A stretch of DNA of 64,000 bases, from NCBI GenBank assembly GCA_963795085.1, contig CAWCFX010000004.1, positions 288,001 to 352,000 on the forward strand, read 5' to 3'. Below are positions 4,551 to 45,026 of this stretch, in pieces (the first letter of the stretch is position 1; the number at the start of each line of letters is the position of its first letter). A program made the translations under genes and the position numbers. The notes beneath the pieces are model-generated. The model ran no database searches, was not told where the DNA came from, and saw nothing but the letters and a program-made list of their open reading frames with translations. This stretch comes from an uncultured Gemmatimonadales bacterium. Its GTDB lineage: Bacteria; Gemmatimonadota; Gemmatimonadetes; Gemmatimonadales; GWC2-71-9.

Positions 4551-6298
4551 CCACTCCGCCGCTTCCCGCGGGCGCTCCGAACGGGACCGCGCTGCCGCCC
4601 TGGGCCGCCGAAATGCGGGACCTGTTCCGGTCCGGCTCGGTGGCGCAGTTCATCGTGCACGGCAACATCTTCGATGTGGTTCCGGCGGGCGGCAAGTTGT
4701 ATCCGCTCAAGCGGTTCATGGAAGAAGTGATGTTCGAGGTGTACGACGTGGTGCTGACCTACGACCGGGGCCGGGGTATTCGCGCCGCCCGGGGCGGCGA
4801 GGACTGGGGCGACTGGCTCAAGGGCGCCGTCGGGATGGATGGCAGCATGCTGGCCCAGCTCCGGGAGCCGGGCCCGGCGCTGGAACTGCTCGACCGGTAC
4901 CTGCTCAGGTCGCTCAACCTCCAGGCGCTCAAAGGCGGCGCCAGCGGCGCGCCCCGGATCGCGGTGGTCATCGATTTCGCCGAGTTCGTGGTGCCCCGGG
5001 GAGACGCGCTGGCACTGGGAGGGCCGTTCAGCGCCAACGTCGTGAAGACCCTGGGCTGGGCCAACGATCCGGCGGTGCTGCAGTCGAACATCATCACCGT
5101 GCTGCTCACCGAGGAGGCGGGGGATCTCAATGAGCTGGTCATGGAGAATCCCCACCAGGCCACCCTGCGCATTCCGCTCCCGGGCGAAGCCGACATGCTG
5201 GAGTACGTGAACACGCTGGCCGCCACCCAGTTTCCGGAACTGGCCGCGAAGTCGGAGGTCCCGCTGGAGGTGCTGGCCCGGCGGCTCACCGGGTTGAGCC
5301 GGATCGGCGCTAGGACAGTGATCGCCCTGGCCCTGCGCAACCACCGCACGATTACGGCGGCCTGGCTGGCCCAGATGAAGAAACAAATGATCGAACGGGA
5401 GTGCCAGGGCCTGCTCGATTTCGTGGAGTCGCCGTTCACCCTGGATCATGTGGCCGGCCACGAGCCGGTCAAGGTCTGGCTCCGGGAGGATACCCTGCTA
5501 CTCAAGCGGGGCGCTCTCCATGCGCTGCCCATGGGGTACCTGATCACCGGCCGGATCGGGACCGGCAAGACCTTCCTGGTGCAGGCCTGGGCCGGGGAGC
5601 TGGGGATCCCCTGCGTGGTCTTCAAGAACTTTCGCGACCGCTGGGTGGGGGCCACCGAATCCAACCTGGAAAAGATCTTCGCGGTCCTCCGGGCGCTGGG
5701 CCAGGTCGTCGTTTTCGTGGACGAGGCCGATCAGGCGGCCGGCAAGCGGGAGGGCGGCGACGGGGACAGCGGGCTCTCCGGCCGGGTCTATTCCATGCTG
5801 GCCAAGGAGATGTCGGACACCCGGAACCGGGGGCGGATCATCTGGGTCTTCGCGACATCGCGCCCCGACCTGCTGGAGGTGGATCTCAAGCGGCAGGGCC
5901 GGCTCGACGTCCATATCCCGCTCTTCCCGCCCCAGACCCGGGACGAACGGCGTGCCCTGCTGCTCGCGGTCGCCCGCAAGCTCAAGGTCCCGGTGACGGA
6001 GGCTGACCTGCCGCCGCTGCCGGAGAACCAGGACCTGGGCGGCAACGAACTGGAAGGGATCCTGGTGCGGGCGCTCCGGGTCCTTGAGCTGGCCCCGGAG
6101 CCGCGGCCGCCGCTCAAGGACATCCTGGCCCAGGTGTTCAGCGAGGTGCGGCCCAGCGCCCATACCCGGAAACTGGAGTACATGGACCTCGTCGCGGTGA
6201 AGGAATGCACCGACGCCCGCTTCCTCCCCCTTCGCTACCGCGACATGGCGCCGGAGGAAATCGAGCGGCAGATTGATGAACTCCGGCGGTTTATCTGA
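4547..6298 (+). CDS. Classical-clade AAA+ ATPase with a degenerate N-terminal AAA-like domain
   Basis: Walker A GRIGTGKT, pore loop DRWVGATESN, Walker B VVVFVDEAD, SRH-like TSRPDLLEVDLKRQGRLD; N-terminal degenerate Walker B (AVVIDFAE). GTG start at 4547. Confidence 0.9.
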   Translation: MTTPPLPAGAPNGTALPPWAAEMRDLFRSGSVAQFIVHGNIFDVVPAGGKLYPLKRFMEEVMFEVYDVVLTYDRGRGIRAARGGEDWGDWLKGAVGMDGSMLAQLREPGPALELLDRYLLRSLNLQALKGGASGAPRIAVVIDFAEFVVPRGDALALGGPFSANVVKTLGWANDPAVLQSNIITVLLTEEAGDLNELVMENPHQATLRIPLPGEADMLEYVNTLAATQFPELAAKSEVPLEVLARRLTGLSRIGARTVIALALRNHRTITAAWLAQMKKQMIERECQGLLDFVESPFTLDHVAGHEPVKVWLREDTLLLKRGALHALPMGYLITGRIGTGKTFLVQAWAGELGIPCVVFKNFRDRWVGATESNLEKIFAVLRALGQVVVFVDEADQAAGKREGGDGDSGLSGRVYSMLAKEMSDTRNRGRIIWVFATSRPDLLEVDLKRQGRLDVHIPLFPPQTRDERRALLLAVARKLKVPVTEADLPPLPENQDLGGNELEGILVRALRVLELAPEPRPPLKDILAQVFSEVRPSAHTRKLEYMDLVAVKECTDARFLPLRYRDMAPEEIERQIDELRRFI

Positions 6299-6356
6299 GG
6301 GGGCCGCCGCCCCCGGTCCACCCGTTTGCCCTTCTTAGCTCACAGGAGACTCTCTG

Positions 6357-40246: not shown

Positions 40247-42241
40247 ATGCTCTCTCTTCTCATGGCGCTGGCAGCTCTGCAGCAGCCCGCAACGCCGCCC
40301 TCCCCGGCCCGGCCGGTTCTCCAGGCTTCCCTCATCGCGCGGGTGGCCGTTCAGCCGGCGGAGGCGGCCGTCCAGGCCAACGACACGATCCGCCTGACCG
40401 CGATCGCCTACGATTCCGCGGGCCGCGCCCTGCCCGACACCCGGGTGATCTGGAACATCTCGGGCGGGATGTTCGAAGGCCGGGTCGACTCCACCGGTCT
40501 CGTCACCGGCGGATCCCCCGGAACATTGACGATTTCCGCCATGGTGCGGCCCCTCGGGGGCGGCCGCGGCGGCGTGGCCACGGCCCGGGTCACGGTGCTC
40601 CCCTCGCCGGCCGCCCGGATCGAGGTGTCCCCGTCCGTGCGCCAGATGATGGTCGGGCAGGTGCTGGCGCTGACCGCCGACCCCTACGCGGCGAATCACG
40701 ATCGCCGATACGACCCGGTCTCCTGGAGTGCGGACCGCCCCGCCGTCCTGGCGGTGGACAGCACCGGGCTCCTGACCGCGAAGGCACCGGGCCGCGCCAT
40801 TATTACGGCCCGGGCCGGCCAGGCCAGCTATTCCGCGACCGTGACCGTGGTCCCCAACCTGGTGACCGCTGTCGAACTCTCTCCCTCGAGCGCGGCGGTG
40901 CGGGCCGGCGACGTCGTCCGGTTCGAGTTTCTCGCCCGCACCAGCGCGGGACGCGCGGTGGCCGACCTGCGGCCCCAATGGTTCATCGCTCCCGGGAGCG
41001 GGCTGGTGGATCACGACGGTGGGTTCGTGGCCGACGTGCCGGGCACCTACCGGGTGATGGCCAGTTTCGCCGGCCGAACGGCGGAAGCCGTCGTCACCGT
41101 GCGCCCGCGGGACGCGGCCCGCCCCGCCACCGTGGTGGGCCGGCTGCCGCTCAAGGTGCAGGCGGCGGAGTTCTGGCTCCATCCCGATGGCCGACACGGG
41201 TATCTCACCACCCTGTCCGACCGGATCTACGCCCTGGACGTCAGCGATCCGGCCGCGCCCGTGATCACCGACTCGGTGATGGTGGACGCCCGGGTCATCA
41301 ATGACCTGATGACGACCGAGGACGGCAAGTTCGGCGTGGTCACCCGGGAGGGCGCGTCCACCCGGAAGAACGGGATCGTCGTGCTCTCCTTCGAGGACCC
41401 GGCTCACCCGAGGGCCATCGCCGAGTTTACCGAGACCGTCTCCGGAGGCGTGCACAGCACGTTCATCTACCGCGGCTACGTGTACCTGACCGACGACGCC
41501 ACCGGCTCGATGCGGGTGATCGACCTTCGCGATCCGTACCAGCCCCGGCAGGTGGCCCGTTGGGAGACGCCCCGCACCGAAGCGGGCCGGATGCTGCACG
41601 ACATCGACGTGCAGGACGGGCTGGCCTATCTGTCCTACTGGAACGACGGCCTGGTGATCCTCGACGTCGGCAACGGCATCAAGGGCGGGAGCCCGGAGAA
41701 CCCCCAGCTCGTTTCCCAGTACAAGTACGATCTCAATGCCCTCTACCGCGAAGTCGAAGCCATCGGCGGTCCCGGCTTCATCCGTGGTACCCATACCGCC
41801 TGGCGGGCCGGCCGCTACGTGTTCGTCGGTGACGAAGTCTTCAGTGCCCGCCCGGTGGCCGGGGGGGTGATCGGGCTGGGGCGCGCCTATGGGCGGCTGC
41901 ACGTGGTGGACGTCTCCGATATCCTGAATCCCCGGGGGGTCGCCTACTACGAGCCCCGGGACGGCGGGACCCACAACGTCTGGGTGGCGGGAGACACCCT
42001 GTATCTGGGCGATTACCAGGGGGGCCTCCGGGTGCTGGATATCTCGGGTGAGCTCCGCGGCGACCTGCTCCGGCAGGGCCGGGAAATCGCCCACGTCCAT
42101 ACCGGCGATCCCAAGGGGGTTACCCCCAACTCCGCCAACGCCTGGGGCGCGATCTACCGGAACGGGTATGTCTACGTGCCTGACATGAATTCGGGGCTGT
42201 GGATCGTCCGGATCGAGTCCCAGTCCGCGCTGACCCCGTAG
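40247..42241 (+). CDS. Secreted Ig-like (Big) repeat + LVIVD-repeat beta-propeller protein
   Basis: Ig-like repeats (VSWSADRPAVLAVDSTGLLTA); GLVILDV, LHVVDVS, GLRVLDIS repeats. Confidence 0.85.
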   Translation: MLSLLMALAALQQPATPPSPARPVLQASLIARVAVQPAEAAVQANDTIRLTAIAYDSAGRALPDTRVIWNISGGMFEGRVDSTGLVTGGSPGTLTISAMVRPLGGGRGGVATARVTVLPSPAARIEVSPSVRQMMVGQVLALTADPYAANHDRRYDPVSWSADRPAVLAVDSTGLLTAKAPGRAIITARAGQASYSATVTVVPNLVTAVELSPSSAAVRAGDVVRFEFLARTSAGRAVADLRPQWFIAPGSGLVDHDGGFVADVPGTYRVMASFAGRTAEAVVTVRPRDAARPATVVGRLPLKVQAAEFWLHPDGRHGYLTTLSDRIYALDVSDPAAPVITDSVMVDARVINDLMTTEDGKFGVVTREGASTRKNGIVVLSFEDPAHPRAIAEFTETVSGGVHSTFIYRGYVYLTDDATGSMRVIDLRDPYQPRQVARWETPRTEAGRMLHDIDVQDGLAYLSYWNDGLVILDVGNGIKGGSPENPQLVSQYKYDLNALYREVEAIGGPGFIRGTHTAWRAGRYVFVGDEVFSARPVAGGVIGLGRAYGRLHVVDVSDILNPRGVAYYEPRDGGTHNVWVAGDTLYLGDYQGGLRVLDISGELRGDLLRQGREIAHVHTGDPKGVTPNSANAWGAIYRNGYVYVPDMNSGLWIVRIESQSALTP

Positions 42242-42299: not shown

Positions 42300-42911
42300 A
42301 TGGCTGAGCCATCTACGCTGGTTGTCCGGACCTTCCTCGATCGGGCGGAAGCACTCGCGCACTTTTTCCACCGGGCCGGGGAGGCGCCCCGCCTGATCGC
42401 GTTCGACGACGCGCTGGGCTGCCCCATGGAAACCGCCCTGGCCGCTCTCGAGTGGACCAACGCGGTCGGGGCGCTCCACGATGACGACCTGCTACACGCC
42501 GCCCGGCTCACCAGCGAGACCGCCGCGGCGGTCATCGAGCGGAAGGCCGATGGGGGGCGGCGATACCTCTACCTGGGTCCCCGGCTGGACGCGCCCCCGA
42601 TGGACGTATTCGAGGGGGCCGTCATCTTCGACGAGCCGGGCGTCAAGGTGGTGGAGTTCTCCCAGCGGGCCCACGGCCTGGCCCATTTTCTCCGGGCCAC
42701 CTCGGGCGTCGGCGCGCTCCTGGCGCTGCTGGGCCGCCGCCCGCCCGAGATTCGCCACATGCGCCGGTGGCTGGGTCCCATCGTGCAGGAACTTGATGCA
42801 CCCCGCCTGCTGGTCGCGGGCTGGTTCGCCGCCAGTTCGGCCGGGTGCCTGTTTTCATCGAAGGAGGATGAACCATCATATCGCTACATCGAAGTCGGTC
42901 TGGAATCCTAG
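42300..42911 (+). CDS. Hypothetical protein with an internal two-fold repeat
   Basis: LVVRTFLDRAEALAHFF versus VKVVEFSQRAHGLAHFL; RYLYLG versus RYIEVG. Confidence 0.8.
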   Translation: MAEPSTLVVRTFLDRAEALAHFFHRAGEAPRLIAFDDALGCPMETALAALEWTNAVGALHDDDLLHAARLTSETAAAVIERKADGGRRYLYLGPRLDAPPMDVFEGAVIFDEPGVKVVEFSQRAHGLAHFLRATSGVGALLALLGRRPPEIRHMRRWLGPIVQELDAPRLLVAGWFAASSAGCLFSSKEDEPSYRYIEVGLES

Positions 42912-43468
42912 CCGTTCTCGCCCTGTTCGCCGTTCACCCTCTCGCGGCACAGAGCGGATTCATCAAGCCGGTAATCCTCGATTCTGCAGGCGCCGCAATG
43001 CTGGACAGCTACGCCTCCATCCGCGATACCATCCGGGTCGTCAGCGGCAAGGCCGCCATACTGCAACGTGATGCCCGCTCGGCGTCTGACCCGGTGCTCT
43101 TTTCCCGCGCCCGGAGTCTCACCGGCGCATGCGACGCCTCGCTGCGCCACCTCGACCGGACCCGGCACCTGATTCTCTCGTCCGACCGCGCCGAACGGGC
43201 CCCGGCACCCCGGCGCACGGCGCTGGATCGCTCAGCCATCGCGCTGCGAGCCGAACTGATGAACTGCACGGGGTTCTACCGGGAGATAACCAGGGACCGG
43301 GTGCGCGATATGCGCGGGAAAGGCGTGACCCAGGCGCTCAAGACCCAGGGCGCCATCCGCGACTTCGAAGGTGCCGCGGAAGCCTACCTGCTGAGCGTGG
43401 GCATCAAGGTCCGGCCCCATGGATCCGGCACGGATGTGTACGCTGGGAGTGCCCGCCGGGCGGATTAG
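42875..43468 (+). CDS. Secreted helical protein with a Cys pair; start possibly non-canonical (ATC 42875; first ATG at 42998)
   Basis: In-frame extension ISLHRSRSGILAVLALFAVHPLAAQ is a signal-peptide pattern; AAGGAGG lies 7 nt upstream of the ATC. Confidence 0.6.
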   Translation: MISLHRSRSGILAVLALFAVHPLAAQSGFIKPVILDSAGAAMLDSYASIRDTIRVVSGKAAILQRDARSASDPVLFSRARSLTGACDASLRHLDRTRHLILSSDRAERAPAPRRTALDRSAIALRAELMNCTGFYREITRDRVRDMRGKGVTQALKTQGAIRDFEGAAEAYLLSVGIKVRPHGSGTDVYAGSARRAD

Positions 43469-43486
43469 AATGGCTGGCTTCCGGGT

Positions 43487-43530
43487 AAAAAAAAGAACGG
43501 CCACCTGGCCCTCAGACCAGGTGGCCGTTC
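43487..43530 (-). terminator. Strong intrinsic terminator ending the ncRNA candidate
   Basis: GAACGGCCACCTGGTC-TGAG-GGCCAGGTGGCCGTTC-T8. Confidence 0.9.
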
Positions 43531-43908
43531 CCACAAAGACTTACCTGAGGTCGGGGCGATGCCGCCGTTCTTCTCTCAACTGCCGCCAGACCGCTTTCGC
43601 TGTCCGGGAGGGCAGGGTGAGGCCTCAGCTTTGATCCCCAGGCCGGATGGCCATCCCACCTGGTTCATCCCTGTGAGCGCTGCGAATCCAACCGGGTCGC
43701 ACCGGTCTTTCGCAGGGCACTCCGAGGCGCCGGATCGGAGTGGATGAAGCCCGCGACGGACTCCATCTGTCGGAGCCGGAGTGATCACCGGGATCTGCGG
43801 CCGCCTGAGCCCTTGGTTGCGTCGGCGACCTCCCCCGATATTCCGCTCAAACTCGCTAAACGCTCGTCCTGGCAAACGCGGGGTTCAACAGCGATCTCGT
43901 TCAGCGGT
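43487..43908 (-). ncRNA. Candidate large structured stand-alone ncRNA (~420 nt), family not recognised
   Basis: No credible ORF; own promoter and terminator; many 5-15 bp helices including a long-range closing helix; GNRA loops. Confidence 0.7.
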
Positions 43909-43913
43909 GATAC

Positions 43914-43941
43914 AAGATAGGATATCGAAATAGCCCCGCAA
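43914..43941 (-). promoter_or_regulatory. Sigma-70-type promoter for the ncRNA candidate
   Basis: TTGCGG-N16-TATCTT on the minus strand, just upstream of the first helix. Confidence 0.6.
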
Positions 43942-44054
43942 GCGCCTGTCTTTATTCGGTTTACGGCACCTCTACGTGGAACAAATGTGGATTGCTAACT
44001 GCGCGGGCAACGCCACGATAGCTGATCTCTCCACACCCGTGTGGAGAATGTGAA

Positions 44055-45026
44055 TCAGAGTCCCCACGTACTTTTCCCCCGGAAGATCCGGCGCCGGTCC
44101 AGTTGCCAGATGGTTCGGGAGCTGATCGCTTCGCCTTCGGAGAAGTTCTCCGGGTCGGCCAGTGCCCGGACCATGCTGTCGGCCTTGGCGCTGGCATCGT
44201 CCGCGTGGTGCAACAACTCGGCTTCCAGCGTCATGGGGAGCACCGGCGCGCCAAACTCGAGCTTGCCATGGTGGGCAAGAATCAGGTGGTGCAGCAGGTC
44301 CAGTTCGCCGCTGGTGAGGCCGTGGTCGCGGCCGGCGGCTCGCTCCTGCAGCATGAGGCTCCCCAGGACCACGTGGCCGTAGAGATGACCCCGCGGCGTC
44401 ATCTCGAACCCGCGCTGGTATCCGTAGGCCTCCAGCTTGCCGATATCATGCAGCAACACTCCCGCGACCAGCAGGTCGGGATCGGCCGGCGTGGTTCGGC
44501 TCAGGGTGCGGGCGATCAGACCGACCTCCCAGGTGTGCTGGAGTAATCCACCGAGCGCCGCGTGGTGCCCGGCAACGCTGGCGGGACACCGGCCAAAGGC
44601 GCTGCGGAAGAGTTGATCGTCGTAGAACAACGCCAGAAGGTCCCGGATCCCGGGCGCGGCAACCTGGGCGCGCCATCCGTCCAGGGCCTGCCAGTACAGG
44701 GCCGTATCGCCGACGGTCGGCAGCATGTCCGCCCAGTTCACGGAGGTCTCCGGGATGGGCCGAATGCGATGGACCCGCAGCTGCCGACGCTCGCGATAGA
44801 GCGTGATGTCGCCGCAGACTTCGACCACCTGGCCGCGGCGGATCCCGGCGAGGAGGGGCAGGGTTTCGGTCCAGAAGGGCGCACTCTGGATCCGGCCTGA
44901 CCGGTTGCCGAGGGTGAGGACGACAAAGGGCTGGTTGCCGGCGCCTCGCTGGGCGATGTCGCAGACCAGCAGGGTTCCTTCCAACTGGTCTCCGGCGGCC
45001 AGTCCGGGAAGCGGGATCATGACCAT
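44055..45026 (-). CDS. YhaM/Cbf1-family 3'-5' exoribonuclease (OB fold + HD domain)
   Basis: N-terminal OB fold; PASVAGHHAALGGLLQHT, LLHDIGK, GHLYGH, ILAHHGKLEFGAP, AELLHHAD. Confidence 0.9.
   Translation of the reverse strand: MVMIPLPGLAAGDQLEGTLLVCDIAQRGAGNQPFVVLTLGNRSGRIQSAPFWTETLPLLAGIRRGQVVEVCGDITLYRERRQLRVHRIRPIPETSVNWADMLPTVGDTALYWQALDGWRAQVAAPGIRDLLALFYDDQLFRSAFGRCPASVAGHHAALGGLLQHTWEVGLIARTLSRTTPADPDLLVAGVLLHDIGKLEAYGYQRGFEMTPRGHLYGHVVLGSLMLQERAAGRDHGLTSGELDLLHHLILAHHGKLEFGAPVLPMTLEAELLHHADDASAKADSMVRALADPENFSEGEAISSRTIWQLDRRRIFRGKSTWGL

Follow-up and report, generated by a model that had tools for sequence, protein, structure and literature searches.

Large, intricately folded bacterial RNAs are rare, and the solved classes (RNase P, tmRNA, riboswitches, omega RNAs) have each revealed new biochemistry; the orphans OLE, raiA, ROOL, and GOLLD are under active structural study. 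The raiA motif RNAs occur in Firmicutes and Actinobacteria and are not known from Gemmatimonadales, and OLE RNA is about 600 nt long. The raiA RNA is described as an abundant, stand-alone, trans-acting bacterial noncoding RNA (ncRNA) whose function is unknown; in its core, P3a-P3b, P4, and pseudoknots PK1 and PK2 are enclosed by a conserved P1, while the peripheral stems vary and stems are gained or lost between subtypes (PMC12968392). OLE RNA is presented as large, ornate, and highly expressed in one bacterial group, with a dedicated protein encoded beside the RNA (PMC3413148, PMC12286853). Here we describe an RNA gene of ~420 nt at positions 43487 to 43908, on the minus strand, of a 64-kb stretch of DNA from an uncultured Gemmatimonadales bacterium, the whole of which we refer to as the window. 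A sequence-only reading of this DNA had proposed a large structured ncRNA of an undescribed family in this position, and that proposal is supported: there is no Rfam match at gathering thresholds, the predicted fold is more stable than those of shuffled sequences, homologs have covarying base pairs, RNA libraries contain related contigs, and no coding signal is conserved.

We are confident that the locus represents a real family of stand-alone structured ncRNAs. That 43487-43908 is the gene of a trans-acting, highly structured RNA of ~420 nt, from a family outside Rfam 15, is very likely though slightly less secure, and the family is probably undescribed in print. The novelty is at the level of the RNA family, and the kind of function is not part of the claim.

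Support for the structure comes from an alignment (A1) of 66 RNAs, less than 93% identical to one another and with one unpublished locus left out. RNAalifold predicts 110 base pairs for these RNAs, 87 of them with changes on both sides, and addition of two pseudoknots from a helix-level covariation screen gives a fold of 115 pairs in 20 helices. In this fold 95.1% of cells are paired, compared with 80.4% after column shuffling, and none of 500 shuffles reaches 95.1%; both-side changes are seen in 87 pairs versus 60.6 in the shuffles, and sliding the 3' partners by one to three columns drops pairing to 37 to 47%. An independent set of 29 divergent cores (17 short paralogues described below, truncated variants, and the window's own copy) was aligned with a model without pseudoknots, and is 95.7% paired compared with 81.5% when shuffled. 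The pseudoknots are 97 to 100% paired in this set, with compensatory variants, although they are absent from the aligning model. At one position of PK1 the 29 cores have A:U 14 times, G:C 12 times, and C:G and G:U once each, and a second position is also compensatory; PK2 is 100% paired, with a further compensatory change.

The architecture has five parts, all read on the minus strand. First, P1 (43855-43901) is a variable 5' hairpin with an internal loop (helices 1 and 2), whose 11 pairs all change on both sides and are 85 to 87% paired; it corresponds to the 5' hairpin of the sequence-only reading. Second, in domain 1 (43769-43852; helices 3 to 6, 93 to 97% paired) the helices P2, P3, and P4 are nested and have a conserved loop, GACGCAACCAAGGGCUCAG, and P5 is a small additional hairpin. 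Third, domain 2 (43676-43768) is the universal core, in which hairpins P6, P7, and P8 are tied together by two pseudoknots. In PK1, the P6 loop GUCGCG (43757-43752) pairs with the P8 loop CGCGAC (43701-43696); in PK2, the P7 loop GGCGC (43731-43727) pairs with GCGCU (43680-43676) just 3' of P8. The family consensus of PK2 is (A/G)G(C/U)GC with GC(G/A)C(U/C), and its variable pair is CG in 41 of the 66 sequences, UA in 25, and unpaired in none. This compact core with its two pseudoknots has many unpaired bases that are invariant. Fourth, domain 3 (43533-43675) is bounded by P9, a long-range helix of 9 bp (43675-43667 with 43541-43533; both-side changes in 8 of 8 pairs) that encloses P10, P11, P12, and P13. 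Fifth, the intrinsic terminator (43487-43532) is helix 20 of the tested fold, with both-side changes in 10 of 11 counted pairs.

This fold differs in its overall plan from the one drawn by eye in the sequence-only reading, which had a long helix closing a single multibranch core. Several of the local hairpins named there (ACUCCGA/UCGGAGU, CUGCGAA/UUCGCAG with an inner hairpin, CCAGG/CCUGG, and a GCC/GGC stem) agree with the covarying fold. The proposed 16-bp long-range helix (43838-43823 with 43567-43551) fails, and its arms lie instead in the local covarying helices P3/P4 and P13; the helices AGGGCUCAG/CUGAGGCCU, GAUCCC/GGGAUC, GGCUCC/GGAGUC, and UUCAUCC/GGAUGAA fail along with it in a joint test. 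Counted together in the 66 sequences, these five helices are 69.6% paired versus 70.2% when shuffled, a value that all 500 shuffles reach, and the closed multibranch architecture is unsupported by the same test.

The RNA gene lies in a GC-rich gap between a yhaM-like gene (44055-45026) and a hypothetical gene, c3 (42998-43468). Its promoter (43914-43941, minus strand) consists of a -35 hexamer TTGCGG (43941-43936), a 16-nt spacer, and a -10 hexamer TATCTT (43919-43914), as the sequence-only reading had it, and cTTGCG and TAT.TT are kept across 23 aligned relatives of two families. A simple-consensus sigma-70 scan of 42800-44600 lists no promoter-like site and leaves the RNA promoter hexamers unscored, so that support for the promoter rests on its conservation. 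The 5' start is inferred to lie ~6 to 7 nt past the -10 hexamer, and the 3' end is placed at the U-tract of the terminator, which has 18 pairs (rather than the 16 first counted), a 4-nt loop, and a T-run, with hairpin and T-run spanning 43532-43493. The minimum free energy of the minus strand is -204.1 kcal/mol (z = -3.94), and none of 100 shuffles is as stable. A conserved TAA upstream of the -35 hexamer was considered as the yhaM stop codon and rejected: that codon occupies 44055-44057, and the TAA is part of conserved noncoding DNA.

The locus could conceivably encode a small protein, either alone or from a dual-function RNA, the candidate being a 99-amino-acid (aa) open reading frame (ORF) at 43576-43875 (minus strand) within the RNA. 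Long open frames are indeed common in this high-GC sequence, and the median longest stop-to-stop frame in the 66 RNAs is 122.5 aa, but each sense-strand frame is open in at most 6 of the 66, the 99-aa ORF has no Pfam match, and the substitutions are compensatory base-pair changes; we consider a coding role hardly credible. The locus has the features of a stand-alone bacterial ncRNA gene: its own promoter, an intrinsic terminator, a conserved structure, and no conserved ORF.

At gathering thresholds, Rfam 15 has no match anywhere in the window. With the threshold relaxed to an E value of ≤10, the interval 43300-44150 gives nine weak matches, the best with 24 bits versus a gathering score of 82; most sit on or beside the terminator hairpin, and none comes near its gathering score. 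ARAGORN reports nothing in the 64 kb. The genome has its RNase P RNA (C4:201071-201465, 278.7 bits), tmRNA (C1:1227885-1228249, 137.4 bits), and SRP RNA (C3:303237-303336, 43.2 bits) elsewhere; the sequence-only reading had likewise seen no hallmarks of these three at the locus. 6S RNA, a long rod of ~180 nt with a central bubble, is detected by RF00013 neither at the locus nor genome-wide (E value of ≤0.001; the genome is 93% complete, and the model matched in only 5 of 14 control genomes), and the fold supported here is multidomain with pseudoknots and is not such a rod. For raiA (RF03072) there is no match over the locus at an E value of ≤10; a genome-wide search also found nothing, but its control matched in no genome, so that result is uninformative. 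Domains of IscB, IsrB, TnpB, or reverse transcriptase, one of which would be expected beside a HEARO or omega RNA, a retron, or a group II intron, are absent from 10 ORFs of the window and from 61 ORFs beside the paralogues; the sequence-only reading had noted that the hallmarks of group II intron domain V are lacking. Open-access literature (PMC and bioRxiv full text, with subscription-only papers outside the scope) yielded no description of this RNA.

These searches bear on whether the locus is a divergent member of a known family (raiA, OLE, 6S, RNase P, tmRNA, SRP, HEARO, or omega RNA) that the Rfam models have missed. The failure to find a 6S RNA in the genome leaves some room for this, as do the position of one paralogue directly after an S30AE/HPF gene and the features shared with raiA, namely abundance, apparent action in trans, a two-pseudoknot core, variable stems, and subtypes (PMC12968392). 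Nonetheless, no family other than the short terminator matches lies over the locus at an E value of ≤10, three of the candidate RNAs are located elsewhere in the genome, the fold is not a 6S rod, and no IscB, TnpB, or reverse transcriptase gene is in the flanks, and we regard membership in a known family as very unlikely.

The family is confined, among the genomes searched, to two families of the order Gemmatimonadales. We refer to three families of our genome set by the codes f1, f2, and f3. By BLAST, the region has a single match in most of the related genomes, namely in 30 of 41 with the window's own counted (23/24 in f1, 6/8 in f3, and 0/8 in f2). A degenerate pattern scan of named species genomes found at least 120 stretches, and a profile hidden Markov model (nhmmer) confirms 73 of those 120, the remaining stretches being chance matches in other GC-rich taxa; among the matches listed, all confirmed loci with a title shown are Gemmatimonadales, Gemmatimonadetes, or Gemmatimonadota records. 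A covariance model of the core (R1) matches 73 of 151 genomes sampled across the phylum, with 70/71 in f1, 2/2 in f3, 0/31 in f2, and 0/46 in nine other families. These tallies include two unpublished genomes (G018 in the BLAST and neighbor sets, and G083 in the 151-genome set), and no claim depends on either.

Expression was sought in public sequencing data. Twenty-four listed runs from 16 studies, mostly of soil or rhizosphere and 23 of them recorded as RNA, each contain only 5 to 10% of the sampled words, and no run of the source organism itself was found among them. Logan contigs from four RNA runs of four studies were placed on the locus at ≥80% likeness; they cover only 43590-43908, filling 10 or 11 of 30 bins depending on the run, with single-contig depths of up to 8700, and of 6255 to 6340 in another study. 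No contigs fall on the flanks or on 43487-43589; these parts are poorly conserved and diverge between species, so that the gap is uninformative. The coverage fits abundant RNAs of relatives, with the reservation, which counts against that interpretation, that the contigs give neither strand nor ends and that DNA carry-over into RNA libraries is not formally excluded.

Three protein genes lie close to the RNA gene. The first, c2 (42300-42911, plus strand), encodes a 203-aa orphan protein that co-occurs with the RNA and adjoins it; just upstream of c2, a further gene (40247-42241, plus strand) encodes a protein of 664 aa that contains Big_2 Ig-like domains as well as an LVIVD repeat. The second is c3, on the plus strand between c2 and the RNA, which stops ~20 nt short of the RNA terminator and here converges with the RNA; a c3 homolog is within 1.5 kb in 20 of 30 loci, and one relative's copy begins with a signal-peptide-like stretch, as judged by eye. 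The third is the yhaM-like gene, on the minus strand upstream of the RNA, whose product has an HD domain (Pfam, 3.2e-14) and a weak OB-fold match (0.001, which is below its cutoff). It matches NCBIfam PRK13480, the equivalog of the 3'-5' exoribonuclease YhaM, with an E value of 2.4e-37 but at 128.7 bits against a cutoff of 460, and by this score the protein is YhaM-like, not a YhaM equivalog. The description of the RNA as lying downstream of yhaM is correct for this genome but not for its relatives, where yhaM converges with the RNA, and the implied tie between the two is weaker than that between the RNA and c2: the yhaM-like gene is present in 18/24 genomes of f1, 5/8 of f2, and 5/8 of f3, and does not follow the RNA, whereas c2 does.

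The arrangement of these genes varies. Most f1 genomes have the order c2(+) c3(+) RNA(+) yhaM(-); in f3 it is RNA(+) c2(-) yhaM(-), with the RNA convergent with c2; and in the window it is c2(+) c3(+) RNA(-) yhaM(-). Relative to four genomes of the same genus, a cassette of ~570 bp (43487-44057), comprising the upstream region, promoter, RNA, and terminator, is inverted on its own, and provides a natural test that the RNA gene is an autonomous transcription unit. It is because of this inversion that the yhaM stop codon overlaps the first of the upstream repeats. As possible inversion breakpoints we found only a 14-nt, 86% complementary pair (43478-43491/44072-44085), one arm of which is inside yhaM, and this is probably a chance occurrence. 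In most f1 genomes c2, c3, and the RNA follow one another on one strand, and the RNA might therefore be viewed as a cis-regulatory element, whether a leader, a riboswitch, or the 3' untranslated region of a neighboring gene. However, it has its own conserved promoter and terminator, the cassette is inverted here and convergent with c2 in f3, and paralogues occur in unrelated contexts; the gene past the terminator in the window is convergent, as was noted earlier in setting aside a riboswitch leader, and orientation to the neighbors varies among genomes. A cis-acting role accordingly seems to us close to untenable.

The family is also modular. About 20 of the 151 genomes have two or three matches to the core, and 20 loci from such genomes were fetched, of which 17 are short paralogues (L171-L179, L181-L183, and L186-L190) and three are primary-locus copies (L180, L184, and L185). 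The short paralogues match only domains 2 and 3 plus the terminator. They form two subtypes: B1 has its own promoter, rich in DnaA-box-like repeats, and lacks domain 1; in B2 the promoter is different, and there is a short stem resembling domain 1. Conversely, domain 3 is missing from the primary-locus copies of some genera (L180, L184, L185, L023, L027, L029, L041, L072, L097, L123, and L133), so that the P9 closing helix cannot form as modeled in those copies. The element shared by long and short forms is a stretch of ~140 nt comprising domain 2 plus P10. We note that three genomes with a domain-3-less copy (G075, G058, and G091) have a second copy of the core elsewhere, and that the second copies fetched from G075 and G058 carry domains 2 and 3 (L179 only in part).

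No consistent neighbor gene was found at the 17 paralogue loci, where the neighbors are diverse. RtcB plus HPF, a beta-CASP RNase, a DNA ligase, and an HHH protein each occur once or twice, too few cases among 17 loci to sustain an RNA-repair theme, which we considered and dropped. Two single cases may be recorded: in L172 (2105-4286) the paralogue directly follows genes for RtcB and an S30AE/HPF (raiA-type) protein on the same strand, and in L176 (2452-4260) it directly follows a beta-CASP RNase gene. Extra copies at varied loci, together with the inverted cassette, could suggest part of a mobile or defense element, such as a retron, or an RNA that serves as guide or scaffold for a transposon-encoded nuclease. 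The primary copy, though, is single and syntenic across two families, no nuclease, reverse transcriptase, or integrase domain was found in the scanned flanks, and no terminal repeats were found beyond the weak 14-nt inverted pair; we think that it most improbably belongs to such an element.

The protein gene with the closest tie to the RNA is c2. A single-query search finds it in 22/24 genomes of f1, 0/8 of f2, and 8/8 of f3, and a c2 profile run on the 151 genomes matches the 73 that have the RNA and no others, with one copy per genome; both are missing from one f1 genome (G102, 97% complete). In 71 of the 72 published genomes c2 and an RNA core share a contig and are separated by less than ~1 kb, G165 alone having them on different contigs, and c2 is adjacent to the RNA in all 12 primary loci fetched, or 11 of 11 without the unpublished one. 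The protein has no Pfam or NCBIfam family, and of 8000 clusters scored 1301 match it at an E value of ≤0.001, the best 120 of which are named only as hypothetical proteins of Gemmatimonadales or Gemmatimonadota. Its predicted structure is confident (pLDDT 85.8, pTM 0.84); Foldseek against the PDB gives no hit at an E value of ≤0.001 (best TM 0.27), VIA-align wide gives no clear relative (best Z of 5.6, for residues 71-138 only), and the ESM Atlas gives no usable hit. There are invariant Cys, Glu, Arg, and Trp residues, and a His is nearly invariant. Because adjacency is kept through three rearrangements and the phyletic patterns are identical, c2 appears to be the best candidate associate of the RNA, and there is perhaps slightly less than an even chance that the two are functionally tied.

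A conserved region of ~110 bp upstream of the promoter (43942-44057, minus strand) contains repeated TGTGGA/TCCACA hexamers resembling DnaA boxes, for which the consensus is TTWTNCACA. Examples are GATTCACA at 44056-44049, TTCTCCACA at 44048-44040, TGTGGA at 44036-44031, and AATCCACA at 43993-43986, all on the minus strand, and a GTAAaCCGAAgAAA..GGCAC block directly abuts the -35 hexamer. The two-family consensus upstream of the -35 hexamer reads tGTGGATtCACA-n-TCTCCACAtcg-TGTGGA ... TCCACA ... GTAAcCCGAAgAAA...GGCACTTGCG. At least three exact TCCACA or TGTGGA hexamers are present in 22 of 23 primary copies. The hexamer frequency in this genome is 0.225 per kb, and the RNA locus is one of three sites with three copies in 200 bp; the other two are at C1:617536 and C1:627553, the latter also with three strict DnaA-box matches. 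With at most one mismatch to this consensus allowed, at least one match is found in 18 of 23 primary, 9 of 9 B1, and 1 of 8 B2 promoters, compared with 66 of 1785 background windows. The B1 promoters are laid out differently from the primary ones, and their repeats are therefore a partly independent observation.

The cluster is not the replication origin (oriC): the RNA, at C4:~332 kb, lies away from both the GC-skew minimum (C4:~175 kb) and dnaA (C4:~209 kb), beside which the genome has its top box cluster. Two further matches to the Bac_DnaA domain lie in tandem in this genome at C3:100907-102463 (minus strand), each reported in a 638-aa open frame. As in DnaA-regulated promoters and DnaA-box clusters such as E. 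coli datA/DARS and those of B. subtilis, there are several TTWTNCACA-like 9-mers within ~110 bp, adjacent to a promoter and away from oriC. Several boxes of the cluster here are, however, off consensus. We know of no structured ncRNA gene under such a DnaA-box cluster. Binding of DnaA to these repeats is a tentative suggestion, and we would not yet favor it.

Taken together, a plausible model is that the conserved core would adopt a compact tertiary fold that serves in trans as a platform for binding or catalysis, most likely within a ribonucleoprotein, with the orphan protein c2 as the best candidate partner or functional associate. Transcription of the RNA could be under the control of a protein recognizing the conserved DnaA-box-like repeats that precede the -35 hexamer, with DnaA itself as the leading candidate. 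In its full form, in which RNA and c2 constitute an unknown ribonucleoprotein or ribozyme system core to two Gemmatimonadales families, with synthesis coupled to DnaA through the box cluster, the model is unlikely, although if true it would give a major group of soil bacteria a new housekeeping RNA machine linked to their cell cycle. Several observations weigh against it. None of the 17 short paralogues, which share the core, has c2, c3, or yhaM within 4 kb; c2 is acidic (median pI of 5.45) and has no recognizable RNA-binding fold or family; and one clade-wide gain plus a single deletion (in G102) may explain the co-occurrence of c2 and RNA. As for the repeats, only two upstream boxes in this genome pass a strict DnaA-box rule, and the B2 paralogues lack them (a single match in eight).

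Some of these observations, together with the compact, double-pseudoknotted core and its many invariant unpaired bases, would also be explained if the RNA acts alone, as a ribozyme, a sensor of a metabolite or ion, or an RNA-only assembly, with c2, c3, and yhaM merely inherited neighbors. Other large bacterial RNAs are reported to form RNA-only complexes (PMC12286853). Set against this, the long form and c2 occur in an identical set of 73 of the 151 genomes, and their adjacency persists through three different arrangements. Action without c2 is a serious contender, if one to which we give less than an even chance.

Whichever way the RNA acts, the family adds a new fold with a 140-nt double-pseudoknot core in the Gemmatimonadales, a group that has been little studied, is mostly uncultured, and is represented here largely by records from soil. 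It comes with several experimental handles: a secondary structure tested by covariation, minimal and extended forms that occur in nature, a candidate partner gene whose phyletic pattern is the same, an upstream regulatory region that is conserved and resembles DnaA boxes, and evidence of RNA abundance in soil metatranscriptomes. The leads that are new here are the protein gene c2, the control region with its DnaA-box-like repeats, the inversion of the cassette, and the minimal core.

How does this RNA compare with the large RNAs already described? It differs from OLE in having no sequence or model match, and c2 appears to be soluble as well as acidic and without a family; like OLE (RF01071) and its Oap partners, it is a large, ornate, and apparently highly expressed RNA of one bacterial group with a protein gene adjoining it, the partnership with c2 being only a candidate one. 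From raiA it is set apart by the absence of a model match at the locus, a different helix order, an approximately twofold greater length, and the fact that no closing P1 was identified around the core. It resembles raiA in its compact core with two pseudoknots, its variable peripheral stems, and its subtypes (PMC12968392), a likeness of general plan in which a stem-by-stem correspondence is not established. By analogy, its nearest counterpart in kind is the raiA motif RNA, followed by OLE RNA with its dedicated partner proteins.

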